From positions 410,002 through 474,001 of the forward strand of contig CAWIXT010000006.1 in the NCBI GenBank assembly GCA_963840165.1: 64,000 nt of DNA, written 5' to 3'. The notes beneath the pieces were generated by a model. It made no database searches and was not told the origin of the DNA. It was given only the letters and a program-made list of their open reading frames with translations. Made by a program: the position numbers and the translations under genes. Positions 47,828 to 53,025 of this stretch are shown here, piece after piece. Positions within the stretch are counted from its first letter, which is position 1. Every line of letters begins with the position of its first letter. Origin of the DNA: an uncultured Gemmatimonadales bacterium. Its GTDB lineage: Bacteria > Gemmatimonadota > Gemmatimonadetes > Gemmatimonadales > GWC2-71-9.

Positions 47828-47939
47828 CGTGAAGGGTGAACGGTGAACGGTGAACGGTGAAGTAGTGAACGGAGATTCGATGCTGAGCGGGACGGGCGCC
47901 CCGTTTACCGTTCACTGTTTACCGTTTACTGCATTCACG
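47828..47939. repeat. Inverted heptamer element (GGTGAAC-like x6 / GTTYACY x4-5)
   Basis: 47828-47870 and 47903-47939. Confidence 0.93.
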
Positions 47940-49392
47940 CGCTGTAGTTCGGAGCTTCTCGTGTGATCGTTACGTCGTGCGGGTGTGACTCCCGCAAACC
48001 AGCGGTGGTAATCTGAATCATCTCGACGTCGCACTGGAGTTGGGGTATAGTGGCCACTCCGCAGTAGCCCATGCCACTGCGCAGCCCGCCCACCATCTGA
48101 TAGAGCACATCGGTGACAGGGCCTCGGTATGGTACCCGCCCTTCTATCCCTTCGGGCACCATCTTGGACGCCGCCATCTCGCCTTCCTGGAAGTAGCGGT
48201 CGGCGGATCCGTCCTGCATGGCGGAGAGGCTTCCCATACCGCGGATCATCTTGAACCGGCGTCCTTCGGCCAGCACCGATTCGCCGGGGCTCTCTTCGGT
48301 CCCGGCCAGCATGGAGCCCATCATCACCGACGAGGCCCCCGCCGCCAGGGCTTTGACCACGTCGCCCGAGTACTTCACACCGCCGTCGGCGATGATGGGC
48401 ACATCGTCGGCGCCTCGCAGCGAGTCGAGAATTGCGGTGACCTGGGGGACCCCGACGCCGGTGACAACCCGGGTGGTGCATATGCTGCCGGGGCCGATCC
48501 CTACCTTGATCGCATCGGCCCCGCGGCGCACCAGTTCCCGGGCGCCGGCTTCGGTCGCGACGTTGCCCGCTACCAGCTGGACATCAGGGTATGCCTCGCG
48601 GAGCTGGTCCACCGTGGCCAGGACCCCTTCGCTGTGGCCATGGGCGGAGTCAACCACGATGACGTCCACTCCGGCGCCGACGAGCGAACGCGCCCGGGCG
48701 ACCGCATCGGCTCCGCCCCCCACCGCTGCCGCTACCCGCAGGCGGCCGTGTTGATCCTTGTTCGCCAGCGGGTGCTCGCGCCGCTTGAAGATGTCCTTCA
48801 CCGTGATCAGCCCCTTGAGCACCCCCTGGTTATCCACCACCGGCAGCTTCTCGATGCGATGCCGGGCCAGGATGCGCTCGGCTTCGTCCAGACCGGTACC
48901 CACCGGCGCCGTCACCAGCTTCTCCTTGGTCATGGCATCGCGAATCGGCTGGTCCAGATTGCGCTCGAACTGGAGATCGCGGTTGGTAATGATCCCCACC
49001 AGGCGGCCCTGCCCGTCGACGATCGGTACGCCGGAGATCTTGAAGCGCCGCATGAGGGCGTAGGCTTCGCGCAGCGGTCGGTCGGGACCCAGCGTGATCG
49101 GGTTGAGGATCATCCCGCTTTCGCTGCGCTTGACCCGATCCACCTCCGCTGCCTGGCGCTCTACGGTCATGTTCTTATGGAGCACCCCGATGCCACCGGC
49201 TCGCGCCATGGCGATCGCCATGTCGGCCTCGGTGACCGTGTCCATGGCGGCGGAGATCAATGGAATGTTGAGGGGTATCGTGCGGGTGAAGCGGGTGACG
49301 GTGGAGACCTCACGCGGATGGACGGCGGAGTGCCGGGGCACGAGAAGCACGTCGTCAAAGGTGAGGCCGAGCTTGGGACGGATCATGCTCAC
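47935..49392 (-). CDS. guaB: IMP dehydrogenase
   Basis: [21 protein letters not shown] pair, [27 protein letters not shown]. Confidence 0.98.
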
Positions 49393-49469
49393 GGGCTACT
49401 CTGCCTACACAAGAAGACCCACCGGCGTCCACGATGGACGGTCGGCGGGCCTGAGTTTGATCGGTCCAT
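49389..49469 (-). CDS. Candidate 26-aa leaderless leader peptide coupled to guaB
   Basis: [29 protein letters not shown] 5 nt below a -10 box; TGA overlaps guaB GTG (GTGA). Confidence 0.4.
49407..49451 (-). terminator. Intrinsic terminator/attenuator hairpin in the guaB leader
   Basis: GGCCCGCCG-AC-CGTCCA-TCG-TGGACG-C-CGGTGGGTC followed by TTCTTGTGT. Confidence 0.7.
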
Positions 49470-49474
49470 CTCCA

Positions 49475-49503
49475 ACAGTAGTGGCCGCTTGCGGCGAAAT
49501 CAA
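49475..49503 (-). promoter_or_regulatory. Sigma70-type promoter for guaB, TTGATT-N17-TACTGT
   Basis: -35 at 49503-49498, -10 at 49480-49475, 17-nt spacer. Confidence 0.65.
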
Positions 49504-51500
49504 GCGGAAGAAGGAGCGGCGCGGTCCTGGTTGAGAAGCCCGCGGACCGCGCTGGCCAGGCCGCTGGCCGTGAACGGTTTTTCGATGAATGGGGCGTCGT
49601 GCGCTATGAGACCCCGCTCGACCACCTCGAGGCCGGGATAGCCGGACATGTAAAGGATAGGGATGTCGGGTCGCACGGCTGCGACCCTCCGGCCGAGCTC
49701 GTGCCCGCTCATCTCCGGCAGAATGACGTCGCACAGGATAAGCTGGATCTCGGCGCTGAGGATCAGCTCCAGGCCGGCCCGCCCCGTGGCAGCCTCCAGC
49801 ACCCGGTAGCCCGCCTCCTCGAGAGTACGCCGCGTGAGGGTGCGCACCGCCTCCTCATCCTCCACGACCAGCAGGACCTCTCCCTCGCCCCGAGGCGCCA
49901 TGACCGGCCGGGAGGGCCGGCTGATGGGATCCGAGACTTTCGGAAGGTACAACTTGACGCTGGTACCCTGGCCGGGCTCACTGTAGAGCCAGATGTACCC
50001 GCCCGACTGCTTCACGATTCCGTAGGCGGTGGAGAGTCCGAGACCGGTTCCCTGCCCCACCGGCTTGGTGGTGAAGAAGGGCTCGAAGGCTCGGGCCCTG
50101 GTGGCGGCGTCCATTCCATCGCCGGTATCGGTCACGCAGAGGGAGACGTAATCGCCCGATTCGATCGAGGTGCCCACGTGCCGGCGGGCATAGCCTTCGT
50201 CCAGAGATACGCGGCTGGTCTCGAGCGTCAGGCGCCCACCCGATCTCATGGCGTGCCTGGCATTGAGCGCCAGGTTGATGATCACCTGCTCCAGCTGCCC
50301 CCGGTCGGCGCGAACCCGCCCCGTCTGCGGGTCCAGACGTATGCCGAGCTCGATGTCGGCGCCCAGGAATCCGGTGAGCATGCGCCCCAGATCGGAGATC
50401 ACCGCGTTGAAATCGAGCACCGAGGGCTGGAGCACCTGCTGCCGGGTAAATGCCAGGAGCTGGCGGGTGATCCCGGCCGCGCGGGTCGCCGCCTTTACCA
50501 TTTCGGACACGTCAGAACGCTGGGGATGATTGTCCGGCATGCCTTTGAGCACGAACCCGCCGAACCCGATAACGGCGGTCATCATGTTGTTGACCTCGTG
50601 GGCCACGCCGCCCGCCAGGTTGCCTACCGCCTCGATCCGTTGGGTCTGCCGCAGGTGGTCCGCCGCCCGGCGCTCATCCTCCACATCGGTGCATGCACCC
50701 ACCCACTCCACATTGCCTTCCGAATCCGTCACCGGAACTGCCCGCGCCATCACTCGCCGATAGGAGCCGTCCCGGGTCCTCAGGCGGTACTCGGCGTAGT
50801 ACATCTCGTTTCGCTCCACTGCTCGGCGCCAGGCTGCAGTAGTGGCCTCGCGGTCCTGGGGATGAATCGCGTTGAGCCATCCCCAACCGGCGAACTCCTC
50901 TTCGGTCTGGCCGGTGTACTGCTGCCAGGTCGTGCCATCTCCCCGGAAGCGCCCGTCCGGATCGCTGATCCACACGACGGCGGAAGAGGCGAGGGCCAGC
51001 GACCGATAGCGCGCCTCACTGCGTTCGAGCGCCGCCTGGACCGCGGCCCGCTCGCTCAGATGGTCCCGGACTTCGTACTGCCGGTAACGGGCTCGAAGGG
51101 CGGCCTGCACCGTGCTCGTCAAGGCCACGGTGCGGACCGGTCGCTCCAGCAGGGTCACGTTTCCGTGGCGCGCGAATCGGGAGAGCAGCGCTCGGCTGGA
51201 TGCCAGGGTGGCGCCGCTGCTGAGGAGGACGATGACGGGTAGGTCGGACCAGGAGGGTTGTGCGGCCAGGCTCGCGTCGAGCTGATCGGACCCGGGTCCG
51301 TGCAGAGCTTCTTCTGCAATGATCGCCACCGCCCCGCCGGCTACGAGCGACTCGGTCAGCGAGCCCATGTCCGGACAGATGCCAGGCTGGAAGTCGTTTT
51401 GGGAAAGGGTGGATGCAAGCAACTCGGCATCGCGGCCGGTGGGCGCGAGAAGCAGAATCCTTTCGCCGGACGCGACCTGCTCTTCCTGCTTATCTGTCAC
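49500..51500 (-). CDS. Hybrid histidine kinase (degenerate REC-PAS-HisKA-HATPase-REC)
   Basis: LLLAPTGRDA pseudo-receiver, PAS IHPQDR, AHEVNN, DTGDG, GTGLGL, C-terminal REC LCDVILP. Confidence 0.93.
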   Translation of the reverse strand: MTDKQEEQVASGERILLLAPTGRDAELLASTLSQNDFQPGICPDMGSLTESLVAGGAVAIIAEEALHGPGSDQLDASLAAQPSWSDLPVIVLLSSGATLASSRALLSRFARHGNVTLLERPVRTVALTSTVQAALRARYRQYEVRDHLSERAAVQAALERSEARYRSLALASSAVVWISDPDGRFRGDGTTWQQYTGQTEEEFAGWGWLNAIHPQDREATTAAWRRAVERNEMYYAEYRLRTRDGSYRRVMARAVPVTDSEGNVEWVGACTDVEDERRAADHLRQTQRIEAVGNLAGGVAHEVNNMMTAVIGFGGFVLKGMPDNHPQRSDVSEMVKAATRAAGITRQLLAFTRQQVLQPSVLDFNAVISDLGRMLTGFLGADIELGIRLDPQTGRVRADRGQLEQVIINLALNARHAMRSGGRLTLETSRVSLDEGYARRHVGTSIESGDYVSLCVTDTGDGMDAATRARAFEPFFTTKPVGQGTGLGLSTAYGIVKQSGGYIWLYSEPGQGTSVKLYLPKVSDPISRPSRPVMAPRGEGEVLLVVEDEEAVRTLTRRTLEEAGYRVLEAATGRAGLELILSAEIQLILCDVILPEMSGHELGRRVAAVRPDIPILYMSGYPGLEVVERGLIAHDAPFIEKPFTASGLASAVRGLLNQDRAAPSSA

Positions 51501-53025
51501 TGGCGCCGGGGCCCTCCACAGCCAGCAGCGGCTGCCGCTGCCCCACGTAGTCCGGCACCCCGGTGAGCACCCCCTGGAACTCCCGGAGCGGCTCCCCCAC
51601 CCTCACCCCCCGGTTGGTGACCTGGAACTCCCGGATGGTCAGCTCATGCGGACCGCTACGCTTCTTCAACACCGAGATCGCCTTCCGAACCTCGCCCATC
51701 GATTCAAAGAATCTGAGCACCAGGAGGCTGTCGGCCAGGTAGCTCACCTCGGCCTGACTCCCGGCCGTCGAGGCAAACATGCCATGCTGCGCCAGCGTGA
51801 GCAGCGTGGTCGCTCCCCGTTGCGCCAGGTAGCTCAGGAGCTCGTGCAGCCGGATGTCCAACAGCCGCTCCTCCGGCATCGCGTTCAGATAGCCGTTCAG
51901 ACTATCGATCACGATAAACTGGCTGCCGTGGCGCTTGGTAGCATCAACGATGGCGTGGGCAAACTCGCCCGGAGATACCTCCGCAGGATCGATCTGGCGG
52001 ATCAGGATCCGCTCCTGCTCCACGTGCCGGGCCAACGGCATGCCGAGGCGTTCGGCGCGATCCATGAAGGTGTTGAGCCGCTCGTCGAAAAGGTACAGGG
52101 CGACGTGATCGCCCCGGTCGGCCGCGGCGCAGGCATATTGGGTGGCCAGGACGGTCTTCCCGCATCCGGCGGGCCCCATGATCATGGAGCTGGTACCTCG
52201 ATCGAGTCCTCCGCCCAGCAGCGTATCCAGCTCCTTCACACCACTCAGCACAGCGGCAGGTTTGAACGGCGTGTGATGTTCAGCCGCTATAAGCCGGGGG
52301 AACACCTCGATCCCGCCGGTCCGGATGGTGTAGTCGTGGTATCCTCCGCGGTACAGCACTCCCCGCATCTTCACCACGCGCAGCTTCCGTCGCTCGGCTC
52401 CATAGTCGAGCGCCAGCTGCTCTAGAAGCAGTACTCCGTGTGCCAGACTTCGTAGCTGCTGATCGCTATCCTCCCCGGTGCGGTCATCGAGCAGCAGCAC
52501 CGTGGAGCGATGGTGAGTGAAGAAGTGCTTGAAGCCGAGAATCTGGCGGCGGTAGCGCAGGGAATCGCGAGCCAGGAGGCGCAGCTCGGAGAGCGAGTCG
52601 AATACCACCCGCGTCGGCTTCACCCGCTCTACGATCTCGAAGATAGTGCGCGTGGTGTTGGTCAGCTCCACTTCAGACGGGTGGAACACGGTATACTGTG
52701 CGTCGGGACTCAGCGACTCCTCATCCGGCATCAGCTCGAACAGCTCGATGCCATCGAGTGACCAGCCATGGGACTTTGCCACCAGCCTGAGCTCTTCGGC
52801 GCTTTCGGAGAGTGTCACATACAGGCCCCGTTCTCCCCGGCGCGCGCCCTCGAGAAGAAACTGGAGCGCGAGGGTGGTTTTACCGGTTCCCGGATCCCCC
52901 TCGATGAGAAACAGGTGTTCGCTGGGGTAGCCACCGTCCATGACGCTGTCCAGGCCGAGTACTCCGGTCTGACTCTTCCCGGCGGCGGCGGTAGGCTTCT
53001 CCTGGTGGCGTAGGACCTCGGTCAT
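51490..53025 (-). CDS. KaiC-like double RecA-domain ATPase
   Basis: Two Walker A motifs (GDPGTGKT, GPAGCGKT), VFDSL/VIDSL, KMRG, SYLAD, KKR. Confidence 0.92.
   Translation of the reverse strand: MTEVLRHQEKPTAAAGKSQTGVLGLDSVMDGGYPSEHLFLIEGDPGTGKTTLALQFLLEGARRGERGLYVTLSESAEELRLVAKSHGWSLDGIELFELMPDEESLSPDAQYTVFHPSEVELTNTTRTIFEIVERVKPTRVVFDSLSELRLLARDSLRYRRQILGFKHFFTHHRSTVLLLDDRTGEDSDQQLRSLAHGVLLLEQLALDYGAERRKLRVVKMRGVLYRGGYHDYTIRTGGIEVFPRLIAAEHHTPFKPAAVLSGVKELDTLLGGGLDRGTSSMIMGPAGCGKTVLATQYACAAADRGDHVALYLFDERLNTFMDRAERLGMPLARHVEQERILIRQIDPAEVSPGEFAHAIVDATKRHGSQFIVIDSLNGYLNAMPEERLLDIRLHELLSYLAQRGATTLLTLAQHGMFASTAGSQAEVSYLADSLLVLRFFESMGEVRKAISVLKKRSGPHELTIREFQVTNRGVRVGEPLREFQGVLTGVPDYVGQRQPLLAVEGPGASDR

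Follow-up and report, generated by a model that had tools for sequence, protein, structure and literature searches.

In uncultured soil bacteria of the order Gemmatimonadales, a large group, guaB is preceded by an ATG that keeps an exact distance of 5 nt from the -10 box. This fixed ATG is, on balance, likely to act as a GTP sensor, in which a GTP-dependent choice of the transcription start site would keep or destroy a leaderless AUG. The spacing was found in 244 of 249 distinct leaders of the order with a search that allowed 3–9 nt from the -10 box to the ATG. A first-pass annotation had proposed a switch between A and G starts at this promoter, together with an antiterminator formed by the longer A-start transcript. 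The switch is favoured because the spacer is invariant at guaB while control genes vary, which it explains best; the antiterminator part of the proposal fails. The window referred to below is the whole stretch of 64,000 nucleotides, from an uncultured Gemmatimonadales bacterium, in which the leader was analysed.

The guaB Leader in the Window

In the window, guaB (47935..49392, minus strand) encodes an IMP dehydrogenase of 485 amino acids that passes TIGR01302. Comparison with relatives, which carry an ATG at this place, identifies the GTG at 49392 as the homologous start. The sequence at 49386-49392 reads GTG-AGC-ATG, and a relative with 99% identity has ATG-AGC-GTG; either codon of GTG-AGC-ATG could be usable for reinitiation on guaB. 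The close relatives of this locus carry Gemmatimonadales names.

The promoter elements, their 17-nt spacing, and the ATG all lie on the minus strand where the first-pass annotation had placed them. The -35 element TTGATT (49498..49503) contains the TGA stop (49502-49500) of the upstream kinase. The -10 element TACTGT (49475..49480), of the form TAnnnT, is followed by a purine-rich discriminator of fixed length, the 5-nt TGGAG (49470..49474), and by ATGG (49466..49469). The latter holds the putative leaderless start codon; its A (A6, 49469) and its G (G8, 49467, with G9 next) are predicted to serve as alternative starts. This promoter falls below the threshold of a simple consensus promoter scanner and is unlisted there; it is supported by conservation instead. 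The ATG opens a short upstream open reading frame (uORF) of 26 codons (49389..49469, minus strand), and its stop, TGA at 49391-49389, was confirmed to overlap the guaB start as GTGA. Within the uORF lies a conserved hairpin (49416..49451, minus strand) that begins 18 nt past the A of the AUG and is followed by the tail TTCTTGTGT (49407..49415, minus strand).

The hybrid sensor kinase upstream (49500..51500, minus strand), which follows a KaiC-like gene, lies outside the element. The KaiC-like ATPase and the hybrid histidine kinase occupy 49503-53025 and separate guaB from an amino-acid permease. This permease directly precedes guaB in many relatives, so the pair is a variable insert, and the upstream gene differs among relatives.

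Conservation of the Start-Site Geometry

Comparison of the guaB upstream regions, a check suggested by the first-pass annotation, supports the promoter with its -10 spacing, the AUG, the uORF frame, the stop/start overlap, and a covarying hairpin. The 5-nt spacer is present in 92 of 93 leaders of the window's genus, in 44/44 from other genera of its family (f1), and in 49/51 and 10/10 from two other Gemmatimonadales families (f2 and f3, respectively). Among the unhandled guaB loci, it occurs in 49 of the 51 with a candidate, and two more loci are without any candidate. The layout is convincing in 8 of 12 loci from other orders of the class and was found in none of 6 loci from other classes. 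Cultured Gemmatimonadaceae share the same guaB geometry.

The surrounding bases are conserved as well. In the genus, the T, A, and last T of the -10 box are invariant in 92/92 leaders with the 5-nt spacer, and TTG(A/C) stands 17 nt away as the -35 box in 89 of these 92. The base immediately before the ATG, the last of the discriminator, is G in 93/93 genus leaders, and a G follows the ATG in 88/93. Across all guaB leaders, G at +4 occurs in 221/249 and is missing from 28, compared with 23/96 leaders of control genes; it is kept though codon 2 alternates among Asp/Glu, Ala, Gly, and Val. A6 and G8 flank T7 in 244/249 leaders, which places two candidate starts with different NTPs at conserved positions inside the start window of the polymerase. 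Bases +5 to +18 contain 11% G in a genome with a GC content of 65%.

A metagenome scan with a pattern that contained no -10 box returned 84 stretches, and in 83 of them TAnnnT was found, always with a spacer of exactly 5 nt. Seventy-nine lie before a recognised guaB start, with one further variant; three are too short, and one is unrelated. A coupled uORF is present in 74 of the 79. On a GuaB tree, the spacer is retained in several separate clades where the uORF and hairpin have been lost. This tree, computed quickly with IQ-TREE from 88 of the 93 long GuaB sequences and marred by one bad long branch, served solely to reveal scattered losses. Contigs labelled Methylomirabilota and Chloroflexia carry a Gemmatimonadales-type guaB with its leader and are nested among Gemmatimonadales on the tree; these contigs are probably misbinned. 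Other lineages carry the leader as an in-frame fusion, or have dropped the uORF and the hairpin, yet keep the 5-nt ATG. As judged from these comparisons, it is therefore the geometry of the start site (A6-T7-G8, mostly with G9) that forms the conserved core, rather than the uORF or the hairpin.

Control Genes and the Genome Background

Among the 1805 ATG genes that our own simple gene caller predicted in this genome, 51, 65, and 31 have spacers of 5, 6, and 7 nt, respectively, from a -10 box to the ATG, with a background of about 8. The leaderless starts span positions 6–8, and C mostly precedes the ATG. Approximately 8% of the predicted ATG genes look leaderless, and the Shine-Dalgarno (SD) signal is weak overall. 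The first-purine profile of 130 predicted promoters revealed no sharp start position. The earlier statement that transcription starts 7 nt below the -10 box is only roughly right, as position 7 is the mode, with position 6 also common.

In one panel, guaB had the 5-nt spacer in 30/30 genomes, against a total of 7/96 for nine control leaderless genes in the same panel or subsets of it; such counts across kin genomes are not independent. The controls comprised polA (3/14), ychF (0/2), lepA (1/18), miaB (1/8), and rpiB (0/10), together with four genes bearing a -35 box, tyrS (1/18), trpS (1/10), dusB (0/10), and uvrA (0/6), which were chosen to exclude the effect of a good -35 box. Among these, ychF is a poor control, being leaderless in 2 of 23 loci, and control loci without an anchor were dropped (9 for tyrS, 7 for rpiB, and a few others). 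Each control gene uses two to five spacer lengths, the whole set ranges from 4 to 9 nt, and many copies are not leaderless. Against the sensor reading, most f1 genomes hold one spacer at tyrS (8 nt) and at dusB (6 nt), genes with no nucleotide link. By these counts, a 5-nt spacer is ordinary within one genome, and what is unusual is the absence of drift at guaB.

Leaderless coupled uORFs were considered as a genome-wide habit, and this was rejected: only 8 candidates were found at spacers 5–7, near the background. An HU/IHF-like gene on the minus strand of this genome has the guaB layout, with a strong promoter, the 5-nt spacer, ATGG, and a 16-codon ORF in ATGA overlap with the gene.

The uORF, the Hairpin, and Its Tail

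In the genus, the uORF stop overlaps the guaB start (NTGA) in 82 of 93 leaders; in the remainder, the frame continues into guaB in 3 and stops elsewhere in 8, mostly within a few codons. The reading frame of the uORF is, on this evidence, under selection because the coupled class spans 18 leader lengths, all 2 mod 3, compared with 7 lengths in the other two frames. A conserved leader peptide was rejected, since both the peptide and its length (5 to more than 40 codons) vary and f2 reads the same nucleotides in another frame. No conserved regulatory codons or arrest peptide were found across the compared leaders. There is no excess of SD signal at the guaB start either (18% of 141 below -6 kcal, compared with 15% for coding interiors).

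The layouts past the ATG are diverse. In f1, a coupled uORF occurs with or without the hairpin, and guaB starts directly in 17/44 leaders from genera other than that of the window. In f2, the leader forms an in-frame N-terminal extension of GuaB (49/51 in frame), with the same hairpin in another frame, whereas in f3 guaB itself starts directly at the spacer-5 ATG. The f2 extension is variable, mostly 25–60 residues long, and its apparent purpose is to keep the RNA hairpin within the reading frame; the annotated guaB start may be wrong in genomes of this type.

The hairpin described by the first-pass annotation is present at 49451-49416, with a folding energy of -26.6 kcal/mol and a z-score of -3.89; none of 200 shuffles was equally stable. 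Across the order, it was found in 156 of 171 leaders of at least 55 nt and in none of 78 shorter ones, and its onset is 18 nt past the A of the AUG in 76/78 genus leaders. In an alignment of 47 sequences, in which two pairs adjoining a bulge align poorly, 12 of 15 pairs are changed on both sides. The covariation score is 0.285, compared with 0.162 for shuffles (0/500) and at most 0.130 for slid partners. The upper stem varies freely among relatives. The only other match to the hairpin and tail motif in this genome lies antisense inside a gene and is due to chance. An Rfam covariance-model search of the guaB leader, which had been suggested for known purine leaders, gave no match even at E 10.

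The tail had been called U-rich. It is present, though only moderately U-rich (5 T in 8 nt), and it is weaker in most relatives, where it is conserved as nucleotides with the consensus (G)UYGYGYAU. At least 4 T in the 8 nt past the hairpin were counted in 36/81 genus leaders and 4/37 from f2, compared with 67/252 gene-end hairpins and 5/192 coding interiors. The hairpin and tail are, by this measure, a putative weak terminator or pause signal, because the tail has more U than coding interiors but less than strong terminators, and little in f2. Neither the uORF nor the hairpin seems essential: on the comparative evidence, both are dispensable add-ons because 78 short leaders are without the hairpin and many lineages start guaB at the ATG itself.

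The Start Codon as a Putative GTP Sensor

The rules of start-site choice derive from the E. coli polymerase and are applied here to Gemmatimonadales. According to one study, position 7 past the -10 box is the modal start and NTP levels matter; pyrimidine starts are disfavoured, a pyrimidine-purine step is favoured, and purine-rich discriminators move starts upstream (PMC5730371). Leaderless mRNAs mostly start at the A of the AUG (PMC4448216).

With T at position 7 of the guaB promoter, A6 and T7-G8 would compete as starts. A6 would be helped by the purine-rich discriminator in the genus and by a preceding pyrimidine elsewhere, and a start at G8-G9 would consume two GTP in succession. Just before the ATG, position 5 varies among G, C, and T, and because of this variation the predicted balance between A6 and G8 cannot be equal everywhere. 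The candidate unproductive start at G8 (usually G8-G9) removes the AUG and uses the end product of the pathway, and the gene encodes IMP dehydrogenase.

At low GTP, transcription would start at A6, the leaderless AUG would be kept, and guaB would be translated. We infer that the ribosome loads the A6 transcript at its G-poor, open 5′ end. In the genus, it would then read the uORF, melt the hairpin, stop at the NTGA overlap, and reinitiate on the SD-less guaB, and in f2 it would cross this hairpin and run straight into guaB. The AUG at the 5-nt spacer would be that of guaB itself in f3 and in parts of f1. At high GTP, transcription would start at G8, which would yield a transcript without the start codon and leave guaB untranslated; the unprotected hairpin and its weak U tail would likely pause or terminate this transcript and sharpen the response. 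An antiterminator helix would be unnecessary for such a switch.

Alternative Explanations

Four other explanations of the leader were weighed, and the order in which they survive is pyrBI-like pausing, a constitutive delivery device, an antiterminator, and an upstream terminator. The first assumes a single start at A6: low GTP would slow the polymerase in the leader, and the ribosome, drawing level with it, would keep the terminator from acting. A uORF that runs through a hairpin with a terminator-like tail fits this explanation, as does the fixed distance of 18 nt from the AUG to the stem. The 3′ arm and tail also contain pause-like G-10/Y-1/G+1 steps, which correspond to the pause consensus. 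It does not predict the invariant 5-nt spacer, however, nor its retention in the 78 short leaders without the hairpin, and the G-poor stretch before the stem offers approximately one Y-G step per leader. Attenuation of this type is unlikely as the sole mechanism; such pausing may be an addition to the start-site switch rather than its replacement.

Next comes a promoter with no start switch, either constitutive or merely sensitive to the ATP concentration. Here the uORF would deliver ribosomes to the SD-less guaB, and the hairpin would stabilise or dampen the mRNA. The 51 genes with the same spacer show that such starts are common in this genome, coupled leaderless uORFs also precede kdsB (in f2 and f3) and the HU-like gene, and the control of promoter strength by the initiating NTP is known (PMC3113569). 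Nevertheless, in the same genomes the nine control genes shift their spacer and often lack a leaderless start, which is never the case for guaB, and the G at +4 is kept across differing second amino acids. We regard this explanation as improbable too.

In the antiterminator version proposed originally, the bases that an A start adds at the 5′ end would pair with GTCCATC of the hairpin. GATGGAC (49470-49464) is indeed the exact complement of GTCCATC (49439-49433), with a chance in shuffles of 0.5% for this heptamer itself and of 2.8% when every 7-mer within the initial 12 nt is allowed. This exact in-stem complement is private to this genome, and the sole other exact 6-mer match among the 93 leaders is at the guaB start. 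The pairing is otherwise no better than with shuffled 5′ ends (1/78 genus leaders in the top 5%), and it would contest the upper stem alone. The A6 and G8 transcripts are predicted to fold into the same hairpin, with no conserved alternative helix, and the antiterminator is rejected as very improbable.

The least credible explanation, that the hairpin merely terminates the kaiC-kinase transcript and guaB starts below it, draws on the position of the hairpin 49 nt past the kinase stop and on a scanner that calls it terminator-like (2 found, 1.6 expected). It is contradicted by the link of the hairpin to the promoter: the distance of 18 nt to the AUG is kept whatever the upstream gene (at least three different ones, with gene-to-(-35) distances of -26 to +217 nt in 83/91 genus loci). 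Moreover, below the hairpin there is neither space for a promoter nor a promoter motif, and in f2 the hairpin sits within the reading frame of guaB itself. A side role in stopping upstream read-through may still be played by the hairpin.

The kdsB-pyrG and purA Leaders

The only other tested gene with a fixed 5-nt spacer is kdsB, on the minus strand in this genome, the first gene of an operon with the CTP synthase gene pyrG. In f1, the spacer is 5 nt in 18/18 genomes, and a C follows the ATG or GTG start codon (RTG-C) in all 18. In f2, GGC-GTG at 7–8 nt is the start of a short ORF that ends in overlap with, or directly at, the start of kdsB, and coupled leaderless uORFs precede kdsB in f2 and f3. 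It is possible that kdsB-pyrG is a CTP/UTP mirror of the putative guaB switch; in both the f1 and the f2 layout of kdsB, the leaderless codon would be lost at high CTP. The invariant spacer of kdsB could mark a second sensor, or it could be a counter-example in which strong -35 promoters simply hold a spacer of 5 nt.

On the minus strand of this genome, purA is served by a promoter of its own, and a GC hairpin with a long U tract follows at a distance of no more than about 10 nt. This layout occurs in most f1 and f2 loci, with the 5′ end (A)GAGGAU in f1 and AACGCCCC in f2. The purA leader has the look of an AMP-branch attenuator not described before.

Comparison with Known Systems

The proposed guaB switch has the same enzyme, signal, and logic as IMD2 of Saccharomyces cerevisiae, an IMP dehydrogenase gene at which transcripts begun at G under high GTP are unproductive and end early, while the A start at low GTP is productive (PMC11323793). 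The same source describes Pol II scanning over approximately 100 nt, termination by Nrd1-Nab3-Sen1, and G starts that lie upstream. At guaB, in contrast, the predicted starts are 2 nt apart within one start codon, the G lies downstream, and the output would be leaderless translation. The two switches would be convergent, not homologous. In pyrC and pyrD of E. coli and Salmonella, the polymerase picks starts 2 nt apart by the NTP ratio, and the output is translation initiation, as proposed for guaB (PMC6524683). There, the CTP:GTP ratio is sensed, and a hairpin hides the SD sequence in a leadered mRNA (same source). At guaB, a purine ratio would be sensed, and the AUG itself would be present or absent. 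No SD-hiding 5′ hairpin was found at guaB, which has no conserved 5′ pairing and no SD sequence.

In E. coli pyrBI and pyrE, a translated leader runs through a terminator, and UTP is sensed during elongation via U-rich pauses; the leader is SD-led and has a strong U tract. The guaB leader is likewise translated across a hairpin before a nucleotide-synthesis gene. It differs in having no G-rich pause stretch before the stem, as runs of the sensed nucleotide are absent between the AUG and the hairpin, and its hairpin is dispensable in many lineages. In mycobacteria, polycysteine attenuators are leaderless short ORFs that act in cis on the downstream gene, as the guaB uORF is proposed to do, through ribosome stalling on conserved codons (bioRxiv 10.1101/834739). 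The guaB uORF, by comparison, has neither a conserved codon nor a conserved peptide. Purine, ZTP, and ppGpp/PRPP riboswitches also place leader hairpins before purine genes; the guaB element is a single hairpin inside a reading frame, with no Rfam counterpart.

A search of the open literature found no account of bacterial guaB being controlled by a leaderless switch or by a choice of start site. An "IMPDH RNA motif" was reportedly described by Weinberg et al. in 2017 and may bear on novelty; the main text of that paper contains no mention of it. The guaB layout is rather probably a variant of NTP-sensitive start-site selection with a new output.

Significance for Gemmatimonadota

A wider generalisation is offered tentatively, at somewhat lower confidence than the guaB switch itself. 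Gemmatimonadota may use the leaderless start codon as a sensor of nucleotide pools, for GTP at guaB and for CTP at kdsB-pyrG, with the codon retained or removed as the transcription start moves by 2 nt. Such control would be free of repressors and riboswitches, would be convergent with that of IMD2 in yeast, and may be a general feature of bacteria with many leaderless mRNAs. If the guaB switch is true, it would be a bacterial counterpart of IMD2 control in its simplest form, a promoter of approximately 40 bp in which the start codon is the switch, and leaderless translation would acquire a function in sensing. It would also provide a compact, genetically encoded sensor of the GTP ratio and would explain how ATP and GTP are balanced in a phylum with almost no regulatory data.
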